From Candidatus Parcubacteria bacterium (GTDB taxonomy: Bacteria; Patescibacteriota; Minisyncoccia; Minisyncoccales; PEYH01), in the NCBI GenBank assembly GCA_026395615.1, contig JAPLYH010000051.1, positions 6,318 through 56,564 of the forward strand: 50,247 nt of DNA, written 5' to 3'. Under the pieces are notes generated by a model. That model was not told the origin of the DNA and did no database searches. It saw nothing but the letters and a program-made list of their open reading frames with translations. This document shows positions 2,795 through 12,812 of the stretch, piece by piece; positions within the stretch are counted from its first letter, which is position 1; each line of letters opens with the position of its first letter. The position numbers were made by a program, and so were the translations under genes.

Positions 2795-4603
2795 TTACCG
2801 TTCACCGCCAAGGCCAGGCATTCGGAAACTACTACTTTGTGACTGTGTTTGTGCTGTGCTATTAGCGCTGATAGTTTGGGAAACCACCTGCTCACCTTCT
2901 TGGAGCCCATTTAAAATTTCAGTAAAAGAATCATTAGATAAGCCGATCTGAACCGATTGCTGTTGAGGAGAATTTTTTGAAACTACTCCCGAACTACTTT
3001 TTGCTATTTGGGATATATTATTTTTATCCAAAGGCAATATCTCTACGTAACTTATATCCCCCGATGATTTTACTGCTGAATTCGGAACCATTAATACATC
3101 TTGCCTTACATCTGTGATGACCGCGGCAGAAACACTCATACCAGGCCTTACTCTGTCATCTTGTGTATCAAAACCTATTTTAACGCCATACGATACCACT
3201 CCCTGAGAAATAGTTCCGAGAGTATCTACTTCCAATACTTCGCCAGTTATACTTAAACCATCAATTGCGTCAAAGGTAAGTGTCGCTTTTTGCCCGACCT
3301 TAATTTTCGCAATATCAACCTCATTGAGGGAAATTTCAGCTATTTTTTGCTTACTGATTAAGGTCGCAACAACTGCGCCGGAAGACACTGGTTCTCCTTT
3401 TTTAAAATTGATTTCTGCTACAATACCCTCAAAAGGCGCATAAGTGAAATAATCACTCAATTTTTCTTTGGCGTCTAATAAAGTATTCTCTCTCTGTTTA
3501 ATCGCCAACTCTTGCGTTCTAATATCAAGAGCATCAGCGCCTGCCTTTAAGTTAGCAAGCGATTCTGTTTTTTCAGCGATTGTCCTGTCAGTAGAGATTA
3601 TGGCTTCTTTATCATTTTCTATATTTGTTTTATAGGTAAGTAAATTAGATAAATGAGAATTGGTTTTGGAAGTATAGGTATTGAGATTAGATAAATGGGT
3701 ATCTGCTATGGCCTGAGGATTTAATCCGCGTTCAGTAAGCTTATCTTTATAAAACTGAATTAAATTATTAGCGCTCTTCACTGTTTCGGCAACATCTCTT
3801 GTTGTTTCGTAAGTTTGGCTTATCAACGACCCTATGACGGCCGTATCAGAAGTCCTGCTTGCAGATTTATAATCTGTAAAATTTTGGTTGTAGGAATCTC
3901 TGGCAACTTGATATTTAGAATCAGAATCACTGCTATACTCTAATGACTTATCATCATATTGTTTAACACTATCTCCATAATAATTAACGTTAGATTGGGT
4001 CCCGGAAAAATTATTTCCAAATAATATGCTTTGAAGACCTGTCATAATTGTTGGCAAATCTAAAAAAGTACTGGCCACTTCATTAAATCCGTCATCATAC
4101 GCTTTATTAAGATTATCTTCAGCATTTCTTTTTGATTCTTCGGCTTGAGCCAGAGAGTTTTCCGCCTGAAGAATTGAAAGATTATCCGCTGGTTGTTGTA
4201 ATTTTTCTAAAGATAACTTCGCGCTCTCCAAGTTTGCCTCCGCATCCCTAACTGACTTTTGGGCAACTTTTTCATCTAATTGTAATAGTAATGTCTTCGC
4301 CTTTACTTCTTGACCATTTATTACTCCAACATATACCGCATCACCGGAAGCATTGGCTTTTAAATCGACCTGATTTGAAGCAGATACCTGTCCGCTTCCA
4401 GAAACAGATGCAATTAAAGTTCCTTTTTCCACTGCTGCTAAAACATATTTTGTCTGATTATTATTTTTGCCACCAGCTGCTCTAATTGTAAAAAAAGCTA
4501 TTAAAATAATTGCCAATATAATGATACCGGCAATTAGTTTGTGCCTGGTCGCCCACTTAGATAATTTGTATAAAAAACTTTTAATCTTAGAAAATATTTT
4601 CAT
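2795..4603 (-). CDS. HlyD/MacA-like membrane-fusion (adaptor) protein
   Basis: 602 aa with an N-terminal TM anchor, a long coiled-coil-like middle and a C-terminal barrel-like segment. It is the first gene of the adaptor-ATPase-permease triad. Confidence 0.7.
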   Translation of the reverse strand: MKIFSKIKSFLYKLSKWATRHKLIAGIIILAIILIAFFTIRAAGGKNNNQTKYVLAAVEKGTLIASVSGSGQVSASNQVDLKANASGDAVYVGVINGQEVKAKTLLLQLDEKVAQKSVRDAEANLESAKLSLEKLQQPADNLSILQAENSLAQAEESKRNAEDNLNKAYDDGFNEVASTFLDLPTIMTGLQSILFGNNFSGTQSNVNYYGDSVKQYDDKSLEYSSDSDSKYQVARDSYNQNFTDYKSASRTSDTAVIGSLISQTYETTRDVAETVKSANNLIQFYKDKLTERGLNPQAIADTHLSNLNTYTSKTNSHLSNLLTYKTNIENDKEAIISTDRTIAEKTESLANLKAGADALDIRTQELAIKQRENTLLDAKEKLSDYFTYAPFEGIVAEINFKKGEPVSSGAVVATLISKQKIAEISLNEVDIAKIKVGQKATLTFDAIDGLSITGEVLEVDTLGTISQGVVSYGVKIGFDTQDDRVRPGMSVSAAVITDVRQDVLMVPNSAVKSSGDISYVEILPLDKNNISQIAKSSSGVVSKNSPQQQSVQIGLSNDSFTEILNGLQEGEQVVSQTISANSTAQTQSQSSSFRMPGLGGER

Positions 4604-4711
4604 AAATAAATTATTAAATATTAAAATATCAAAAAAGGATATTCATATTAAATATCCCCACAATATATTACTACAATAAAAACCGATTTTTATTTCCTTA
4701 AAACAAAATCA

Positions 4712-5479
4712 CTATTTCAAATGCGGTTGCGACTTTGGTTCCTTGCGCCCATCAAATTGCGGAAAAAAAGATTCTCTCTCTTCTTCTATTTGGCGAATAC
4801 CAAAAGCACTAATAGATGAATCGCTTTCATCTCCCACAACCATAATCAAATCACCTTCTGACATTTCTTCATTTCTCTGTAAAATAGTTTCTGGTGAAAT
4901 AATTATTGTAAAAACTTCTCCTTTCTCATTTTTCATTATTATTTCTTCATCAGAAATAGTGGATATTTCTCCAATATGGATATTCGGAGAAGATTGCATA
5001 ATATGTGCCCGATAAAAAGGCTCTACAATGGGCATATTTCCCTCTGTTACTCCTCTAAATAATTGAGGGTGCATAGGTGTTAACGAAACTATAAAGCCCA
5101 CCAATAATACAAACACAATTATTCCTAAAATAGAATAAACTAATGGTTTTTTATAAACCCAAGAAAATTTCTCGGCTAAAAACTCTAATATTACTACTAA
5201 GACGAGTATAAAAACCAATAAAAACCACGGGAACCCTGCGAAGAAAATTCCTATACCCCGAGGGCCAAAACCAATTGTATGCCAAAGCCCGGTAGCGTGC
5301 ATTTTAAACATTATAAAACTAAAAATCAGCGCTCCTAGACAGAAAAATAAAATAATTCCTAATATAAAAAGCGCGGTCTTAAATAAAAACAAAACTTTCG
5401 GTGTCATATGTACCTCTTTGTCTTTTATTCTTTTCAAAATCTGCTCCTTTATATTGTTTTTCAGAGAATTATTGTCCAT
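4712..5479 (-). CDS. polytopic membrane protein, possible anti-sigma partner of the upstream ECF sigma
   Basis: 255 aa with several TM helices. Its start overlaps the sigma-factor stop (5469-5479). Function is inferred from position only. Confidence 0.4.
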   Translation of the reverse strand: MDNNSLKNNIKEQILKRIKDKEVHMTPKVLFLFKTALFILGIILFFCLGALIFSFIMFKMHATGLWHTIGFGPRGIGIFFAGFPWFLLVFILVLVVILEFLAEKFSWVYKKPLVYSILGIIVFVLLVGFIVSLTPMHPQLFRGVTEGNMPIVEPFYRAHIMQSSPNIHIGEISTISDEEIIMKNEKGEVFTIIISPETILQRNEEMSEGDLIMVVGDESDSSISAFGIRQIEEERESFFPQFDGRKEPKSQPHLK

Positions 5480-6026
5480 ATATTTTATTATAAATGGATT
5501 TTAATTTTTCTTTTCCCCTATTTAAACGGACGCCTACTGTTGGGATTGGCAAATGTAAAATATCTGCAATCTCTCTATAACTTAACTCTTCCAAGTAATA
5601 AAGAATAATCGGCTCTCGGTATTTTGGCTCCAGTTCGTTCAGGCATTTATCAATTATTTCTTGCATTTCCTGACGATTTAATTCCTTATCCGTCTCGTTG
5701 TCATGAATATGAACGATATGCGGAAAAAAGGTGTCAAAATCGAAGGAAGAAAAAAACTTCCTTTTTCGCAAATGATTAACTAACTCATTATGAGCGATTC
5801 TGTAGAGCCACGAAGAAAATTTCCTTTTAACATCAAAACTTTGAATATTAGTATATGCCTTTATAAAAATGCCTTGAATAATATCATCAGTATCTTCTTT
5901 ATTGGAAAGAAATTTTCGGGCGTAACGCCTGATTTTATCCTCGTATCTTTCAATCAAAATGCCAAAATAATCAGCCTTGCCTGATTGAATCAGATATACA
6001 ATTTCTTCATCGCTTTGCTCCGACAT
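5469..6026 (-). CDS. RNA polymerase sigma-70 factor, ECF subfamily
   Basis: 185 aa. Region 2 is like DDIIQGIFIKAY...FSSWLYRIAHNELVNHLRKRK. Region 4 HTH is LSYREIADILHLPIPTVGVRLNRGKEKLK. Confidence 0.85.
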   Translation of the reverse strand: MSEQSDEEIVYLIQSGKADYFGILIERYEDKIRRYARKFLSNKEDTDDIIQGIFIKAYTNIQSFDVKRKFSSWLYRIAHNELVNHLRKRKFFSSFDFDTFFPHIVHIHDNETDKELNRQEMQEIIDKCLNELEPKYREPIILYYLEELSYREIADILHLPIPTVGVRLNRGKEKLKSIYNKIYGQ

Positions 6027-6065
6027 AAAGTATTATCTAATAACTAATACAATTATTATACCTTT

Positions 6066-6848
6066 TTATTCCAAAATAATTATCCTGACATATCTCCAGC
6101 GATTATATTGGTCTTTAAAAAACTCAAAATTTTTATAACCTTCTTTTTTTAACAACCTGTTTATCTCTGGTTTTTGGAAGGAATCAAATTCAAGATAAAC
6201 TTTTCCATTCGGCTTTAAATAATTCTTCGCTTGTTTTAAAAATCTTTTTATATACAATAAACCATCTTTGCTTGCAAAAAGGGCATTTCGGGGCTCGTAT
6301 TTTAAAACTGACTCTTGTGCTTTCTTTTTACGCCCTTTAGCTATATATGGAGGGTTGACCAATACAAAATCGTATTTCTTTTTAATATTTTTAAAAATAT
6401 CTGTTTGAATAACTGCCGATTTTCTTTTATCTAATTTATTGAGCCGAAGATTAAACCTAATCTGCCATAAAAAATCTTTATCAATCTCACCAAAATCAAC
6501 CCGTGCATTAGGGACATTCTTAAGAACAGCAATTCCAATCGCCCCGCTTCCAGAAAACAAATCTAAACATTCTCGTTCATTTTTTCGTTTTTTTATCTCT
6601 TCAATCGCTTTTTCTACCCAATATTCTGTCTCTGGCCTGGGAATTAATGGTTTTTTCTTTAAATCAATTTTAGTCCCCAAAAACTCTGCAAAACCAATAA
6701 GATAATCCAATGGTTCTCCCCTTTTTAATTTTTCAATATCTGTCTTGGCTCTAGCGGTTAGCTTGCCTTGATATTTCTCTTTTAAAAGCCAATTAATTTG
6801 TTTTTCAAAGAATTCCTGTGATTTATTCATTTTTAAAAACTTTGGCAA
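6066..6848 (-). CDS. prmC: release-factor glutamine N5-methyltransferase (HemK/PrmC family)
   Basis: GEPLDYLIGFAEFLG...LIPRPETEYWVE, SAM site DLFSGSGAIG and catalytic NPPY (VLVNPPYI). Confidence 0.8.
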   Translation of the reverse strand: MPKFLKMNKSQEFFEKQINWLLKEKYQGKLTARAKTDIEKLKRGEPLDYLIGFAEFLGTKIDLKKKPLIPRPETEYWVEKAIEEIKKRKNERECLDLFSGSGAIGIAVLKNVPNARVDFGEIDKDFLWQIRFNLRLNKLDKRKSAVIQTDIFKNIKKKYDFVLVNPPYIAKGRKKKAQESVLKYEPRNALFASKDGLLYIKRFLKQAKNYLKPNGKVYLEFDSFQKPEINRLLKKEGYKNFEFFKDQYNRWRYVRIIILE

Positions 6849-7419
6849 TTAAATAAAATAAATAAAATTCTCTGCTATATTTTCTTACTGCGCTCGGACG
6901 AAATGATTTAACAGAAATAAATAATGTTTTTATTTCTTTTAAAAACTCCGCTGTCCCCTCTCCTTCAAATATTTTGCAAATAAAAATTCCTCTTGGTTTG
7001 AGTGACTGTTTGACAATATCCAAGGCGGCTTTCCCCAGCTCTAATGATTTCGCCACATCTACGAAATGGACACCCGAGGTTCCTGGCGCTGCGTCAGAAA
7101 CTATCATATCAAATTTCTCTTCAAAATTATTCACAAGTTCCTTGATATCGCCCTTTATAAACTTCATATTTTCTTTAAGAGGAATTTTTAAATCAACTAT
7201 ATCAACACCGATTACTTTGCCCTTTCTGCCTACTTTTTCGCTAAGATAAATCATCCAGGAGCCAGGCGCGCATCCAATGTCTAAAATAAAATCACCTGGC
7301 TTAACAAGCCGGTATTTTTTATTTATCTCCTGTAGTTTATAAACTGACCGAGCTGGATAATTTTCCTCTTTAGCTTTTTTAAAATAAGAATCTTGTCTTG
7401 TATCTTTTTGTCTCTTCAT
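6823..7419 (-). CDS. rlmE: 23S rRNA 2'-O-ribose methyltransferase RlmE/FtsJ
   Basis: RSVYKLQEINKKYRLVKPGDFILDIGCAPGSWMIY...DMIVSDAAP is the FtsJ signature. Confidence 0.85.
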   Translation of the reverse strand: MKRQKDTRQDSYFKKAKEENYPARSVYKLQEINKKYRLVKPGDFILDIGCAPGSWMIYLSEKVGRKGKVIGVDIVDLKIPLKENMKFIKGDIKELVNNFEEKFDMIVSDAAPGTSGVHFVDVAKSLELGKAALDIVKQSLKPRGIFICKIFEGEGTAEFLKEIKTLFISVKSFRPSAVRKYSREFYLFYLIAKVFKNE

Positions 7420-7859
7420 TTGTTTTTTCTCTTATATTCAATATATTTTTTAATAGTCTCTCTAAAGGGTTTGGCTAAATCCATTTTAAATCCCTCTTCT
7501 GGGGTTACCCAGACATAATCAATAATTTCTTCGTTATCTAATTTTATATCATCGCTATTTTCTGATTTACATAAAAAGGCGAAAAAAATAACATGACCTG
7601 GTCGAAAAAATTCTTTTGAGTTTATAACCTCATTAAATGAGATTATTGTAATCGGCTCTACTTTTAAACCCACCTCCTCTAGGGCTTCTCTTTTAACGGT
7701 ATTTATCATTTTCTCTCCTGCCTCAATATGACCTCCTGGCATCACCCACTTATTAAACCATTTTGGAGATTTAACTAAAAGAAGCTTGTCTTCTTTGTCT
7801 TCTATTACAATTAGCACAACTATTTCAATTCCCTTGGGAAATTTATTATTTGTAGACAT
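7416..7859 (-). CDS. NUDIX hydrolase
   Basis: Nudix box GGHIEAGEKMINTVKREALEEVGL. Confidence 0.85.
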   Translation of the reverse strand: MSTNNKFPKGIEIVVLIVIEDKEDKLLLVKSPKWFNKWVMPGGHIEAGEKMINTVKREALEEVGLKVEPITIISFNEVINSKEFFRPGHVIFFAFLCKSENSDDIKLDNEEIIDYVWVTPEEGFKMDLAKPFRETIKKYIEYKRKNK

Positions 7860-7862
7860 ATT

Positions 7863-8904
7863 TTATATCTTAGATGAAAGTATTATCACTTTACTTCTTA
7901 TGAATTTATTTTTTATTAATTTTTTAACAATAAACAATATAACCTTAACCGCTGTTTTGTTGTGTTTTAATAAAGTTAAAGCGCTCTCTTGCATCTTTTT
8001 CACTTTTACCATTTTTTTCAATTCCTTCAAATTATAATCAGGGTTGATAATCTTATAAGCAATTTCTTTGCCAGAAAGTATAGCTGCGTAAATTCCTTCT
8101 CCAGTCACTCCATTTGCCAAACCAGCGGCATCACCGGCTAAAAAAAATATTACCAAACTCAACTCCCTGATAATCATAATTTATTAAAGCAGATTCAAAT
8201 TTATATTTTTTAACATCAATTCCGCGCTCTTGGCACCAATTATCAAATTCAACTTTTACATTATCGCTTTTGCTGAATTTTGGATTAATTCCTACTCCAA
8301 CTGAAGCAATCTCTCCTCTGGGAAAAATCCAAGCATAAGTCGGGCCAAATTTTTTATAATCAAAAAATACTTCCAGCTCGTCAAATTTTGAATCAGTAAC
8401 AAGATAATGCATTCCTGCCCCGACTTTTTCAAATTTCAGACCAAGAAATCTTCTGACAATAGAATTGCTTCCATCTGCGCCAATAAGATGTTTATAAAAT
8501 AATCTTTGCCCGTTTCTTAAAAAAACGCTTTGTTTATCTATTTTTACAACTTCTGAATTAAACTCAATTATTGCTCCTGCTTTTTGTGCTTCTTCCAACT
8601 GCCATTTTCCAATATCTTTCCTGTCGCAAGTCCAAATCCATGGGGTATTAAATTCAAATTTTGTGCAATGACCGTCTAAATGAAGATTCGCAGATTTAAA
8701 CTCTTTTGTTATTACGCTGTCCGGCACTCTAATCTTTTTAAAATCTTTAAGAGTAAGTCCTCCTGCACAGGGTTTATCTCCGGCTATACTATTTTTCTCA
8801 AGTATTAAAACTTTTTTATTGCGAGATGCCAAAACCTTTCCAGCAGTAAGCCCGGCTGGTCCAGCTCCGATTATTATTACGTCGTAAACATTTCCTGTTT
8901 CCAT
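7863..8904 (-). pseudogene. geranylgeranyl-reductase-family FAD flavoprotein, split by a 1-nt frameshift in a T8 run
   Basis: The N part (8131-8904) carries YDVIIIGAGPAGLTAG. The C part (7863-8177) carries FLAGDAAGLANGVTGEGI. Deleting one base of the run at 8141-8148 joins ...EFGNIF-LAGDAAG... in one frame. Confidence 0.7.
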
Positions 8905-9006
8905 ATTGATTTATTCTATCAAAAAAACATCAATTAAACTAATCGTAATACTTGTAGGAAACAAAGGGCGCCTCCTACTATTCCAACTAGAAGAGAAAGC
9001 GCCCGA

Positions 9007-10647
9007 CTACTGCTTGTCTGAACCAACCATCTCGGCTTCAAGCGCAGCTATGAGCTCGCCGCCTCGTTGTAGTAAGGCCTTGAGTTCTCCCGCCATAGCG
9101 CTTATTCGCTCTTGCCGAGTAGTTGTCGCCGGCTTCTTTGTTCTGATCCGACCGGAAACTGGTCTAGGCACTGGGACATCTCTTAGCCAGTGAAGCTTAG
9201 ACAGCCCTTCACACTTCTCCTGTGGAACCAACCAGCCCCAATACTTAAACCATGCGTACTGAGCACAACCGACTCTTACGCTACCGAACTTCTTAATCAA
9301 TACTCCGCTCGCTCCGCTCACCAGCCATCCTTCTCCTTCAGGATGTTTTTCCTGCGCTGCAGCACGAAGCGCGGCATATGCTTCGCAACGATTCCCTGGT
9401 AATCCAGCTGGGAAATCTATTGCTTCTCCTCCACTCCTCGCTCCCACCTGTTTACCAGCTGCCTTAGGCACCGGAACGACTCTCAACCAGTAGGTTCTTG
9501 CTCCGCCACCCTGTTCCTTCCTACCCTCTTCTGTAGTAAGCCAACCAGCACTTCTCAATCGCATGAAAAGCTTACTAGCTATTCGTTTTCCGAATCGTTC
9601 GCGCAAAACTCCGCTTGCCCTGCACACCAACCATCCTCCTTCAGGATGTTCTTCTTTTGCAGCAGCAAGAAGTATTGCATACGCCTCACGGTATTTCTCT
9701 GGTAGGTCAATAGGAGAATCCTTTACTTCTCCTATATCTCTTGGTTCCGTTCTTGGTTCCGTTCTTGGTTCCGTTCTTGGTTCCGTTCTTGGTTCCGTTC
9801 TTGGTTCCGTTCTTGGTTCCGCCCGCTTACCAGCTGTCTTAGATACTGGAACGTCCCTAAGCCAGTGGTCTTTACCTCTGCTTCCTTCTGCGTTCTTTGT
9901 TTCTTCTGAGGTCAACCAACCATTTCCCTTAAACCAGGCATAGTAGGTTGAAAACCCTTTACGGCCAAACTTACCAACCAAAACGCCCAATGCTCTTGGT
10001 ACTATCCATCCCCCTTCGGGATGTTTTCCTTGCGCTGCGGCACGAAGTGCGGCATATGCTTCACGGTATTTCTCCGGCAGACCAGCAGGAAAGTCACCTT
10101 CAATCGGATGAATCGACTGCCGTTGAACCACCGGAGTGATTGGTGAAACAGCTGGTGTTGTTGGTTTCTTGACAGCAAGAGCAGCCAGCTTACGTGGTAG
10201 AGCCAACTCTGGCATCTTTTCTGCTGTCGCTCGTGCCGAAGGTTGCAACCCAATTCCACTCAATTCTCGTAGTGATCTCTCTTGATGTAACGTCTCTATT
10301 CCCCTTGAACAAAGATGAGTTCCTCTGCCAGCAGGCCTCCTCTTAGCATTGACTGCTTCTCCTTCTCTTCTCCTCGGTCGTTCCGCATCGTCTGCGAATA
10401 GATTCACATTCGGTCTGTCTTGCCAAAGCCATCCAGTATCGCCTCTGATTCTTGCTGCTCTTGAGTGAATCTGGTAGGCCTCTTTGACCTCGGAAAGACT
10501 GACCGTAGGATGTTGATCTACTACTGCCGCCAACAAAGAATTCAGTGAAGCGTGGCTAATGCCGTCGCCCTTTACCCCGAGGATTAGCTGTTTGAATGAC
10601 TCATAGCCATCCAACTTAACTATCCCCACTCCCGTTCCGTTTCCCAT
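9007..10647 (-). CDS. GC-rich repeat protein of unknown function (three ~100-aa internal repeats plus an (EPRT)n linker)
   Basis: ATG at 10647 lies 7 nt after GAGGAGGG (10655-10662). The 546-aa product carries three copies of FPAGLPEKYREAYAALRAAAQ.KHPEGGW...GWL...HWLRDVPV and a C-terminal helical tail. It is clearly more GC-rich than its flanks. Confidence 0.7.
   Translation of the reverse strand: MGNGTGVGIVKLDGYESFKQLILGVKGDGISHASLNSLLAAVVDQHPTVSLSEVKEAYQIHSRAARIRGDTGWLWQDRPNVNLFADDAERPRRREGEAVNAKRRPAGRGTHLCSRGIETLHQERSLRELSGIGLQPSARATAEKMPELALPRKLAALAVKKPTTPAVSPITPVVQRQSIHPIEGDFPAGLPEKYREAYAALRAAAQGKHPEGGWIVPRALGVLVGKFGRKGFSTYYAWFKGNGWLTSEETKNAEGSRGKDHWLRDVPVSKTAGKRAEPRTEPRTEPRTEPRTEPRTEPRTEPRDIGEVKDSPIDLPEKYREAYAILLAAAKEEHPEGGWLVCRASGVLRERFGKRIASKLFMRLRSAGWLTTEEGRKEQGGGARTYWLRVVPVPKAAGKQVGARSGGEAIDFPAGLPGNRCEAYAALRAAAQEKHPEGEGWLVSGASGVLIKKFGSVRVGCAQYAWFKYWGWLVPQEKCEGLSKLHWLRDVPVPRPVSGRIRTKKPATTTRQERISAMAGELKALLQRGGELIAALEAEMVGSDKQ
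9743..9826. repeat. 12-bp tandem repeat ggttccgttctt, about 7 units
   Basis: Six perfect units plus a diverged seventh. It encodes EPRTEPRT... inside the 9007-10647 gene. Confidence 0.95.
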
Positions 10648-10736
10648 TTTACATCCCTCCTCTCGTTCTTGAGATTTGCTCTTGGCTTGCCGTTGATTCA
10701 GACATAAATTGGCAAAGAGCAAAAGAACATATTTTG

Positions 10737-10765
10737 AATTTAGTATTATTATGTCTAAGTGTCAA
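10737..10765 (-). promoter_or_regulatory. sigma70-like promoter for the GC-rich repeat-protein gene
   Basis: Minus strand reads TTGACA (10765-10760), 17 nt, TAAATT (10742-10737), about 90 nt upstream of the ATG. Confidence 0.5.
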
Positions 10766-10821
10766 CGATTAAAACATTTCACTAATAAAAATTATCATTA
10801 AAATATTTATGTTCTCGACTT

Positions 10822-10848
10822 AAAAACCCTCGTGAACAGAGGGTTTTT
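10822..10848 (-). terminator. hairpin terminator after tRNA-Gln
   Basis: aaaaaccctc-gtgaaca-gagggttttt is a perfect stem flanked by A and T runs, so it could act in both directions. Confidence 0.6.
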
Positions 10849-10856
10849 AGTATCAT

Positions 10857-10928
10857 TTGCGGGGCTAGGATTCGAACCTAGAATAGTCGCCTTCAAAGGG
10901 CGATGTCCTACCGTTAGACGACCCCGCA
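10857..10928 (-). tRNA. tRNA-Gln (anticodon TTG)
   Basis: Manual cloverleaf: acceptor TGCGGGG/CCCCGCA with U1-A72, anticodon loop CTTTGAA, T-arm CTAGG-TTCGAAT-CCTAG. No encoded CCA. Confidence 0.9.
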
Positions 10929-10952
10929 GAGTTAATCACTAATCATTTATCA

Positions 10953-12065
10953 TTAATCGCCGATTATTTCAAGGATTGCCAATTCTAATGGCAATTGGGG
11001 AATCGGAGAATATTTAATCTTATTTTGTGCTTCTAAAAATAATTTAAGCGCCTTCCTTATTTCAGGCTCCTTGAATTTTAAAGATTGTTCTTTTAGTTCT
11101 TTCTTCACTTCTTCGGTCAAATTACGAAAAATCGGATTTTCCAAATCAGGGCTTATTTTAAAAATCAACGCTTGACGCAAATATTCAACAATCGCTTTTA
11201 CTAATTCCGAAGGATCCAGTCCTTTCTCAATTATTTCATTCAAAAAATCAACCGCCTTTCCCGCATTTTTTTGAAAAATCAAATCAATTAACTTGGTTAT
11301 CAAGCTTATATCAATTATGCCTAATAATGTTTTCACATCTTCTTCTAAAATTTCTTTTTTATCGTCTTTATCAGAAACCTTGCTAAAACTTAAAACTTGG
11401 TCAAGTAAAACCTCGGCATTTCTGACTGCCCCATCCGCATTCATAACTATAAGCTCTAACGCGGATTTTTCTATTTTTATTTTCTCTTTTTTAACGATTG
11501 CTTCCAATTTGCTCATTATCTCTGACGCTGAAAGTTTTTTAAAATCAAACCTCTGACATCTTGAGCTGATTGTGGAAATCATTTTATGGGCTTCCGTGGT
11601 GGCTAGTATAAATACCGCAAATGAAGGCGGCTCTTCAAGCATCTTAAGTAAAGCGTTAGCCGCATCTTTTGAAAGCTGATGACTTTCATCAATAATAAAA
11701 ACCTTATATTTCATCCGCGTTGGAGAAAATCTAATTCCCTCTTTCAATTCCCTGATATCATCTATTCCTCTGTTTGAAGCAGCGTCAATCTCCACCAAAT
11801 CAATCGCCCTTCCGCTATTTATTTCCATACAGGACTGACATTTATTACAGGGCTCAAAGCCCTGAAGATTTTCACAATTTATGGCTTTCGCCAATAACCG
11901 AGCAACTGTTGTTTTCCCTGAACCCTTTGGACCGGAAAACAAATAACAATGAGATAAAGAATCGTTTTTTATCTCATTAGTTATCGTTCTTATTACATGT
12001 TCCTGACCTACCATCTCTGAAAAGCTTTTCGGTCTATATTTGCGATATAAAACTAAATTAACCAT
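10953..12065 (-). CDS. dnaX: DNA polymerase III subunit gamma/tau
   Basis: Walker A GPKGSGKTT, zinc module CENLQGFEPCNKCQSC, DEAD-like FIIDESHQLS and sensor SRCQRF. Confidence 0.9.
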   Translation of the reverse strand: MVNLVLYRKYRPKSFSEMVGQEHVIRTITNEIKNDSLSHCYLFSGPKGSGKTTVARLLAKAINCENLQGFEPCNKCQSCMEINSGRAIDLVEIDAASNRGIDDIRELKEGIRFSPTRMKYKVFIIDESHQLSKDAANALLKMLEEPPSFAVFILATTEAHKMISTISSRCQRFDFKKLSASEIMSKLEAIVKKEKIKIEKSALELIVMNADGAVRNAEVLLDQVLSFSKVSDKDDKKEILEEDVKTLLGIIDISLITKLIDLIFQKNAGKAVDFLNEIIEKGLDPSELVKAIVEYLRQALIFKISPDLENPIFRNLTEEVKKELKEQSLKFKEPEIRKALKLFLEAQNKIKYSPIPQLPLELAILEIIGD

Positions 12066-12071
12066 AATCCT

Positions 12072-12812
12072 TTATTTGGAAATTAATAAAACAAACAGGT
12101 AAATAGTAGCGAATTTTGCAATTTCTGTGCCAATTTTTTTAATTTCTGGCCACGCTTCCAGGTTCTTCCTATATTTAATAGTTCCAAATACTCCGATAAC
12201 ACCCGCAGCAACAATTATCCACTGATAAGTATTATTGAATATGATAACAGAAAATAAACTTGTCAAGAATAATAGCGCGAAACTTACCGTAAGCAAATAG
12301 AAAATTTTATTCTTCAATAATTTATAACTAACATCTTGATCTGCAATAGAGTGAACTAATTCTGCACACATTGAAGCAATAAAAAGAACAATAATACTCA
12401 TCCAATTAACAGACGCTGCAAATGCCCAATAAACGATCATTGAGCATATAACAGATAAATAAACATTTTTAAACAATCCTATATTTTTCAATTTCAGATT
12501 GTAAAGAGCAATTAAAACCGTGAATATTAACGCAAAAATTAAATTATATCCGATAGTAAGACATAGGCCTAATAGAATCAGCATAAAAGTTAATCCTTGT
12601 AAGGATTTATGGGACAAAGACATATTTCTGTCTTTATCTATCCAGTCATTCATCAAAAGCAGGCCTATTGTTATAAACATCCACCCAGTAATGGGCTTGA
12701 GAATATAAAGAAAGTTGGCATTAGAATCAATTAAGGCGAATAAAATCGGAATCAAAACAGTAGAGAGATATTCTAATCTATACAAAGTATCTCCGTGATA
12801 TTCTTTGAGCAT
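12072..12812 (-). CDS. polytopic membrane protein, tentatively UbiA-like prenyltransferase
   Basis: 246 aa with about 8 TM helices. The Asp-rich loop NDWIDKDRN resembles UbiA motif 1. It is adjacent to a GtrA-like gene. Confidence 0.4.
   Translation of the reverse strand: MLKEYHGDTLYRLEYLSTVLIPILFALIDSNANFLYILKPITGWMFITIGLLLMNDWIDKDRNMSLSHKSLQGLTFMLILLGLCLTIGYNLIFALIFTVLIALYNLKLKNIGLFKNVYLSVICSMIVYWAFAASVNWMSIIVLFIASMCAELVHSIADQDVSYKLLKNKIFYLLTVSFALLFLTSLFSVIIFNNTYQWIIVAAGVIGVFGTIKYRKNLEAWPEIKKIGTEIAKFATIYLFVLLISK

Follow-up and report, generated by a model that had tools for sequence, protein, structure and literature searches.

A lineage-restricted gene of freshwater Parcubacteria with three predicted winged-helix modules on disordered tethers

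RepA_N plasmid initiators, encoded on mobile DNA beside their iterons, combine one winged-helix (WH) domain, which binds repeated DNA sites, with a host-specific C-domain. Initiators of the RepE/pi type carry two WH domains. The phage initiators, lambda-O-like proteins, replisome organisers and HTH_36 proteins (phrog_391, PF13730, PF09681, PF07120, PF14297) have one N-terminal WH domain followed by linkers, and ori-lambda lies inside gene O. MarR, Fur, PadR and TrmBL2 (the latter being a chromatin protein) are basic DNA binders with one WH domain per chain and dedicated dimerisation domains. Successive WH domains in one polypeptide are found in SelB (C-terminal WH1-4), STK19, TFIIIC tau-B and ESCRT-II; in SelB, four such domains bind an RNA, the SECIS hairpin. 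The gene described here (thereafter the WH gene; its product is P0001, 546 amino acids, aa) lies on contig JAPLYH010000051.1 of a Candidatus Parcubacteria bacterium, the genome of which (G000) has 587 kb in 54 contigs and is 98.9% complete. The window is the whole stretch of 50,247 nucleotides (nt) that was analysed, and all positions refer to it.

The reading somewhat favoured here is that of an expressed, lineage-restricted accessory gene for a basic tandem-WH nucleic-acid-binding protein in uncultured freshwater Parcubacteria, probably of foreign or mobile-element origin. The comparison with the systems above shows the following: (i) RepA_N initiators (4pql, 4pt7, 5kbj) give the best structural match for one repeat (query TM-score, TMq, 0.51-0.59; probability 0.92-1.0), and the binding of repeated DNA sites is proposed, as is mobile DNA as a source, for P0001 too; however, identity is 16-18%, E is at least 0.018, there is no sequence-profile match, and P0001 has three tandem modules in a chromosomal single-gene unit where no iterons or replication partners were found; (ii) the phage initiator and HTH_36 set shares the WH domain and linkers and supplies leads in the structural database BFVD and from a protein language model, but all of these are under significance and those proteins carry one WH domain instead of three; (iii) MarR, Fur, PadR and TrmBL2 share fold and topology (TMq 0.43-0.51), without sequence similarity, whereas the modules of P0001 are concatenated with disordered tethers; (iv) the tandem-WH proteins resemble P0001 in their succession of domains (weak matches, E 0.012-0.6), but they have no homology with it and differ in kingdom and in partners, and the whole-chain TM-scores of 0.09-0.13 are uninformative; (v) tRNA-linked islands and integrative elements share atypical composition, tRNA adjacency and patchy presence among relatives, but the P0001 unit is one gene with its own signals, in which integrase, duplicated tRNA 3' end and flanking direct repeats were not found.

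The three repeats of P0001 and the three of its homologue P0002 align with 26 invariant columns. One repeat was modelled with AlphaFold2 (AF2) from an 8-repeat alignment (predicted local distance difference test, pLDDT, 71.9; predicted template modelling score, pTM, 0.59), and the full-length protein from a 3-sequence alignment (pLDDT 57.7 overall, 70-86 in the folded parts). The repeat model has the topology H1-b1-H2-H3-b2-b3 of a canonical winged helix, i.e., helices at residues 15-27, 42-50 and 52-65 and strands at 37-40, 68-70 and 83-86. The same pattern occurs three times in the full-length model, as similar modules at about 192-263, 317-388 and 418-488 with disordered linkers between them. 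The repeats are predicted on this basis to adopt the winged-helix fold, as had been proposed by eye in the initial annotation. Nearly all of the top 50 Foldseek matches of the repeat in PDB are WH proteins or WH-containing domains, the first being the N-terminal domains of RepA_N proteins (E 0.018-0.08), then Fur, MarR, TrmBL2 and PadR. In BFVD, the leading named matches are phage «replication initiator» and helix-turn-helix (HTH) proteins (E 0.008-0.05, TMq 0.49-0.62), all named matches being WH or HTH. The full-length model gives weak matches to the tandem-WH proteins TFIIIC, ESCRT-II and STK19.

Outside the modules, the N-terminal region of about 190 aa previously described is present but can be refined to a folded domain of about 75 aa and a disordered linker of about 108 aa. 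The N-terminal domain is 53% identical to that of P0002, with a ratio of non-synonymous to synonymous substitution rates (dN/dS) of 0.23, and it is followed by the conserved motif DTGWLWQDRPN. It was also considered as a fourth WH domain, a reading rejected because hhalign against the repeat profile gives a probability of 0.2%. The first linker has a net charge of +7, a pI of 10.8 and a dN/dS of 0.60, which indicates relaxed constraint. The C-terminal amphipathic helix is recovered in the AF2 model and is 77% identical to that of P0002; it may be an oligomerisation element.

P0001 as a whole has a net charge of +25 and a pI of 9.8, and each WH module has a pI of 9.0-9.8. This basic charge suggests that the predicted modules bind nucleic acid. 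Each module would contact nucleic acid, most probably double-stranded DNA (dsDNA), through the H3 helix and the beta-wing. Flexible linkers, including an expandable (EPRT)n microsatellite, join the three modules, and a long disordered Arg/Pro-rich tether follows the N-terminal domain; acting jointly, the modules could recognise a site that is composite or repeated. The C-terminal helix might then pair or bundle P0001 molecules, and the protein would act as a site-specific DNA organiser or regulator.

Several results weigh against this reading. No match links P0001 to any DNA-binding family in the sequence searches of Pfam, NCBIfam, PADLOC or PDB. The best PHROG, phrog_391 («replication initiation O-like»), reaches E = 2e-3 with full-length P0001 and 0.37 with one repeat. 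Every Foldseek E-value is at least 0.008, with TMq of 0.4-0.62, and the models were built on shallow alignments of 3 and 8 rows. In the type-A modules (defined below), H3 is an aromatic-rich helix and not a basic one, an unusual feature in a helix that reads the major groove. A search for arrays of candidate binding sites, around the WH gene and in the remainder of the genome, found none.

The family searches were made with the whole protein and the 8-repeat set against Pfam, PHROGs, NCBIfam, PADLOC and PDB. Apart from phrog_391, they yielded low-complexity (EPRT) or sub-threshold matches, and the PADLOC defence models gave no match at E ≤ 1 for P0001 or P0002. Language-model look-alikes (Phage_rep_org_N, DUF1376, Lin1244_N, HTH_36 and T4 RegA) have scores of 0.79-0.89, under the trust level of the tool. 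The HTH_36 link was examined further and rejected: at E ≤ 1e-5, PF13730 has no match in G000; across Patescibacteria, its matches proved mostly to be LexA or TrmB-type WH domains; and hhalign of the repeat profile against five initiator-like HTH_36 domains of Patescibacteria gives a probability of 0.1%.

These leads nevertheless speak for a rival reading, in which an integrated plasmid or phage left the WH gene behind as a domesticated or remnant initiator of replication or organiser of the replisome (an iteron-binding Rep, lambda-O or DnaD-like protein), the 12-bp array or nearby repeats being the former origin. The best structural matches (RepA_N and phage initiators), the weak phrog_391 match and four of the language-model leads (Phage_rep_org_N, DUF1376, Lin1244_N and HTH_36, 0.79-0.87) all point that way, and the gene contains a perfect tandem DNA array, just as gene O contains ori-lambda. 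However, all these leads are under the significance levels stated for the tools, and the adjacent genes include no helicase, loader, primase, integrase or partition gene. Moreover, the number of array units varies (about 7 in the window, 1 in P0002 and 3 in the other homologue, P0021), and the array is for this reason regarded as a coding microsatellite and not as conserved iterons. The 12-bp unit is found nowhere else in G000, i.e., it is not dispersed, and no other direct-repeat family occurs near the WH gene. Finally, three lineages keep the gene at a single chromosomal locus, where it is under purifying selection. Since the sequence and profile matches fail significance, membership of any initiator family is unsupported; in the models the resemblance of the WH modules to replication initiators is at the fold level only, and a former initiator is rather unlikely.

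The aromatic content of the modules (8-12 aromatic residues each, with Tyr, Trp and Phe frequent in the type-A H3 helix) bears on another explanation, i.e., that the tandem modules bind RNA or single-stranded nucleic acid, or act as a protein-protein scaffold (as in ESCRT-II and cullins), and are not readers of dsDNA. The T4 RegA translational-repressor cluster among the leads for one repeat (0.87), the matches of the full-length model to scaffold-type tandem-WH proteins and the failure to find candidate DNA sites go in the same direction. On the contrary, all the modules and linkers are basic, the leading structural neighbours are mostly dsDNA binders, and the RegA and scaffold matches are weak. 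An RNA-binding or scaffold role is thus considered unlikely, and dsDNA is retained as the most probable ligand of P0001.

Only two true homologues were found in public data, both syntenic and both GC-rich. P0002 (530 aa, 45% identity in colinear alignment) is encoded on L001, a 4.7-kb Logan contig, where the gene has about 0.50 GC beside flanks of about 0.30. P0021 is the 3' part of an open reading frame (ORF) that is open at the end of L013, a 2.9-kb JGI contig. On both contigs the WH gene is followed by the same reductase and rlmE genes. A word search of 5.8 G proteins gave one true match, the other 18 being EPRT-repeat matches to peptidase-domain proteins; an exhaustive phmmer search of 1.84 G representatives gave one further true match; the repeat profile had no match among the 5.8 G proteins. 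The WH gene was not found in INPHARED phages, IMG/VR, JGI metagenome contigs or GTDB genome contigs, nor in 40 relatives, nor in 4 same-genus species, 20 same-family genomes or about 400 genomes of the same order. One order-wide match (E 0.0025) turned out to be an unrelated Cys-rich repeat protein. Neither a distribution in all relatives nor homology to a housekeeping family was thus observed.

The genes flanking the WH gene are 71-92% identical at the protein level between L001 and the window, i.e., much more than the WH protein itself. The low colinear identity of the latter is largely due to a difference in module order. The modules were typed by the identity of their cores, the core being the part after HPEGGW, with b1, H2, H3 and the wing. 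Type A comprises repeat 1 of the window, repeat 2 of L001 and the first visible repeat of L013 (82-91% identical); type B comprises repeat 2 of the window and repeat 1 of L001 (84%); type C comprises repeat 3 of L001 and the last repeat of L013 (73%). The core of repeat 3 of the window (D) stands alone, with at most 53% identity to any other module, while its H1 part is 80% identical to that of module 1. More generally, the H1 segments are more uniform than the cores and differently patterned. The modules follow one another as A-B-D in the window and as B-A-C in L001; on L013, the final part of a B-like module is followed by A and C. The dN/dS of orthologous WH modules is 0.10-0.30, to be compared with 0.08-0.20 for the flanking genes, and these ratios show the modules to be under purifying selection.

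A CATCC-N(5-8)-GGATG palindrome lies at the HPEGGW codons of each repeat (9326-9345, 9632-9648 and 10007-10023). No other DNA segment of the repeats is as conserved. The palindrome lies at the boundary of the homogenised H1 and the type-specific cores, and this position makes it a plausible recombination point. The antisense «terminators» predicted at 9326, 9632 and 10007 were discarded as by-products of this palindrome. A further, very unlikely extension would be a modular DNA-reading array: a separate short DNA word would be read by each of the core types A, B and C (73-91% identical across species), the cores would change their order through recombination at the near-invariant HPEGGW/H1 segments and their spacing through (EPRT)n, and the composite target would be re-programmed between strains in this way. 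If so, a possible role would be the recognition or silencing of GC-rich foreign islands of an AT-rich reduced genome.

Most lineage-specific genes of the tiny genomes of Patescibacteria (also termed CPR) have no assigned function, and a fold and a plausible activity can be proposed here for one such orphan. An undescribed sequence family and architecture is added, i.e., three concatenated winged helices on disordered tethers, and repeat modules are seen to be re-ordered between close relatives, each still under purifying selection. Should a role as DNA organiser or regulator be confirmed, P0001 would rank among the few candidate accessory regulators of such reduced genomes. In practical terms its value is modest, the WH gene being confined to a very narrow lineage.

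The unit differs strongly in composition from the DNA around it. Over 500-bp windows it has a GC of 0.48-0.54, while both flanks have about 0.30-0.36, in agreement with the initial annotation, and its GC peaks at 0.505 in 1.5-kb windows (genome 0.360, standard deviation, SD, 0.035). With a tetranucleotide correlation to the genome of 0.12 (0.91 ± 0.11 for the genome), it ranks about 4th-5th among 609 windows for atypical composition. In synonymous codon usage, its log-ratio of −0.01 is 4.7 SD away from native genes (−0.48 ± 0.10); the genes of strongly GC-rich islands have +0.41 ± 0.12. Lys AAG is used at 0.67 (0.22 in native genes) and Leu TTA at 0.07 (0.40 in native genes), while the codon choices for Arg, Gly, Ala and Glu are near native. 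About 15 scattered GC-rich islands exist in G000 (GC 0.44-0.53, GC at third codon positions, GC3, 0.55-0.65), e.g., C50:4751-9500 and C6:11501-13750, and others on C29, C32, C44, C11 and C16. Their cargo is unrelated to the WH gene: two PKD-domain (surface) proteins, SPFH/Band-7, ParB-CE-domain, thymidylate kinase and several ORFs without Pfam match. No DNA similarity exists between the unit and the rest of the genome, except a terminator-like hairpin. The WH gene belongs to a compositional minority, though it is less extreme at third codon positions; this is compatible with older or differently sourced foreign DNA, without proving a foreign origin.

The locus is variable. The dnaX-tRNA-Gln adjacency is retained in G001, G002, G004 and G005, and the slot downstream of tRNA-Gln was read in two same-genus genomes, ORF names being assigned by eye from sequence. 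In G001 (L012, 5400-8100) it holds a 90-aa GIY-YIG-like ORF, NUDIX, toxin-antitoxin-like ORFs (a RelE/antitoxin-like pair), a RhuM-like ORF and rlmE; in G002 (L011, 800-8000), NUDIX is preceded by about 7 kb in which amidase-like, Fic-like and other ORFs lie. The interval from tRNA-Gln to rlmE is a hot spot of accessory genes in this genus. The geranylgeranyl-reductase-family gene downstream was not found in G001-G005 at E ≤ 1e-20; it accompanies the WH gene in all three lineages, the two being inherited jointly. The extra DNA relative to G001, the nearest reference genome, therefore consists of the WH gene plus this reductase of native GC.

The horizontal acquisition proposed at first is thus sustained in part. 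Atypical composition, patchy presence and the variable slot are consistent with it, and the WH gene probably came from foreign DNA, possibly from a phage or plasmid. On the other hand, the position beside tRNA-Gln does not by itself show tRNA-targeted integration: no integrase or site-specific recombinase ORF lies within 4.5-13.5 kb, and no att repeat was seen, i.e., nothing repeats the tRNA or its 3' end within 4500-11100. A donor lineage was not found in the phage, IMG/VR, JGI or GTDB collections. The idea of a higher-GC host or neighbour as donor is left without evidence, since no homologue was found outside the lineage in these collections or in the two protein sets. In addition, GC at the first, second and third codon positions (GC1/GC2/GC3) of the WH gene is 0.60/0.51/0.40, the native means being 0.44/0.34/0.30. 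GC3 being only 0.40, much of the GC excess reflects the amino-acid composition: Ala, Arg, Gly and Pro make up 11.2, 9.5, 10.8 and 6.8% of P0001 (6.0, 4.0, 6.5 and 3.8% in native genes), an enrichment also pointed out in the initial annotation.

The latter values are those expected of a native gene, i.e., one that is fast-evolving and lineage-specific, GC-rich through its Ala/Arg/Gly/Pro-rich and partly disordered protein, and that arose or diverged beyond recognition in this Parcubacteria lineage. GC1 and GC2 hold most of the excess (native GC3 is 0.30 ± 0.08), four amino acids show near-native codon choices, neither donor nor integrase nor att site was found, and the gene is syntenic in three lineages. 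Yet the codon log-ratio departs from that of native genes, the tetranucleotide signature is among the most atypical of the genome, searches of 4 same-genus species did not find the WH gene, both loci read show a variable slot, and other GC-rich islands with unrelated cargo exist in the same genome. A native origin is therefore held to be distinctly unlikely, and a foreign one is preferred.

The stretch was also found outside this assembly. Eleven freshwater DNA runs from three studies hold it, including the AT-rich junctions, at 0.72-0.99 of sampled words, and independent contigs of one of them (X11) bridge both junctions with the AT-rich flanks. An artefact, i.e., a chimeric assembly or GC-rich non-coding DNA in which an ORF occurs by chance, could be suspected in a metagenome assembly of 54 contigs, and the internal repeats break short-read contigs. 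It is effectively refuted: a chimera is ruled out because the stretch is nearly intact in the 11 DNA runs, and two diverged relatives keep the ORF open with a dN/dS well below 1. Three lake metatranscriptomes contain six mismatch-free contigs inside the WH gene (Table 1), whereas about 3 kb of neighbouring genes have no genuine match in them. These RNA runs, however, were selected for holding the WH gene and are stored as unstranded contigs, which give no relative expression. Transcription of the WH gene in lakes is suggested by these contigs. The sample labels are freshwater and lake water.

The WH gene is an autonomous unit with its own promoter, conserved leader, strong ribosome-binding site and terminator; these signals, i.e., TTGACA-17-TAAATT, GAGGAGGG and a GGGCGC/GCGCCC hairpin with T-tract, are present as initially annotated. 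The minus-strand ORF 9007-10722 has 571 aa when read from TTG, and 546 aa, starting with MGNGTG, from the ATG at 10647. The start was placed at this ATG because the syntenic homologue P0002 opens with the same MGNGTG. From the −35 box to the ATG, the window and L001 are 88% identical; upstream of the −35 box, identity is 17%, i.e., unrelated. Similarity begins about 10 nt upstream of the −35 box, which marks the unit boundary. Both promoter hexamers are retained in L001 except for one change in the −10 box (TAAATT to TAGATT). The stem ends and T-tract of the terminator are conserved in L001 and L013, and so is the spacer to the reductase in all three lineages.

Table 1. Positions of the WH gene, its parts and its neighbours in the window
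Feature	Positions	Strand	Basis or remark
Coding sequence of P0001, 546 aa	9007-10647	−	stop codon 9007-9009
Sigma-70-like promoter, TTGACA-17-TAAATT	10737-10765	−	10/12 matches
5' leader, about 90 nt, conserved	10648-10736	−	comparison with L001
Ribosome-binding site, GAGGAGGG	10655-10662	−	read directly; 7 nt before ATG
N-terminal 3-helix domain, aa 1-75	10423-10647	−	AF2 helices 15-26, 35-45, 51-68; pLDDT 70-85
Disordered basic Arg/Pro/Ala-rich linker, aa 76-183 (about 108 aa)	10099-10422	−	pLDDT 26-32, no secondary structure
Predicted WH module 1, aa 184-268, core type A	9844-10098	−	AF2 and repeat alignment
Perfect tandem array, 12 bp x 6.9, encoding (EPRT)7	9739-9821	−	inside linker 2 (aa 269-311, nt 9715-9843)
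Predicted WH module 2, aa 312-394, core type B	9466-9714	−	AF2 and repeat alignment
Predicted WH module 3, aa 413-494, divergent core, H1 segment like that of type A	9166-9411	−	AF2 and repeat alignment
C-terminal long amphipathic helix, aa 511-546	9010-9117	−	AF2 helix 511-543, pLDDT 77-86
Intrinsic-terminator-like hairpin (GGGCGC/GCGCCC stem) and UUUGUUU	8959-9004	−	−22.2 kcal/mol, z = −2.76
tRNA-Gln(UUG), upstream flank	10857-10928	−	part of the conserved dnaX-tRNA-Gln backbone, outside the unit
Terminator hairpin of tRNA-Gln	10820-10850		
Geranylgeranyl-reductase-family gene, frameshifted, downstream flank	7863-8904	−	native GC
Metatranscriptome contigs, perfect match	9371-9520, 9590-9739, 9775-9816, 10002-10118, 10208-10358, 10408-10652		

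The promoter and leader (88% versus L001) are more conserved than the N-terminal coding third (about 70%, in a high-scoring segment pair that includes the leader). An 8-bp inverted repeat, AGACATAA / TTATGTCT, has one copy in the promoter spacer and one in the leader (within 10648-10770 of the window), both retained in L001, and a leader hairpin shows one compensatory change (GCC/GGC to GTC/GAC). These elements could be an operator or a leader structure. The fold of the leader RNA is not better than that of shuffled sequence (z = −1.3), and the Rfam search gave nothing besides tRNA.

The unit lies between tRNA-Gln and a broken reductase gene, as described initially, and the neighbours are dnaX, tRNA-Gln, the geranylgeranyl-reductase-family gene, NUDIX and RlmE. 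In the window the reductase consists of two pieces, 257 + 104 aa, while it is intact (346 aa) in L001 and L013. The frameshift region is 8131-8177, and an independent contig of the DNA run X11 (8135-9091) reads the same across the T-run. The frameshift is thus probably real in the population and not an error of a single assembly. Between dnaX and the next conserved gene, an ORF for a 246-aa membrane protein (12072-12812) has no tblastn match in the corresponding G001 and G002 loci; it may be another lineage-specific insertion in this neighbourhood. Two 28-nt copies of the tRNA-Gln terminator hairpin, 89% identical, occur on contig C37 (8208-8235 and 8955-8982), and they may represent a recurrent terminator or an element of the repetitive extragenic palindrome (REP) kind.

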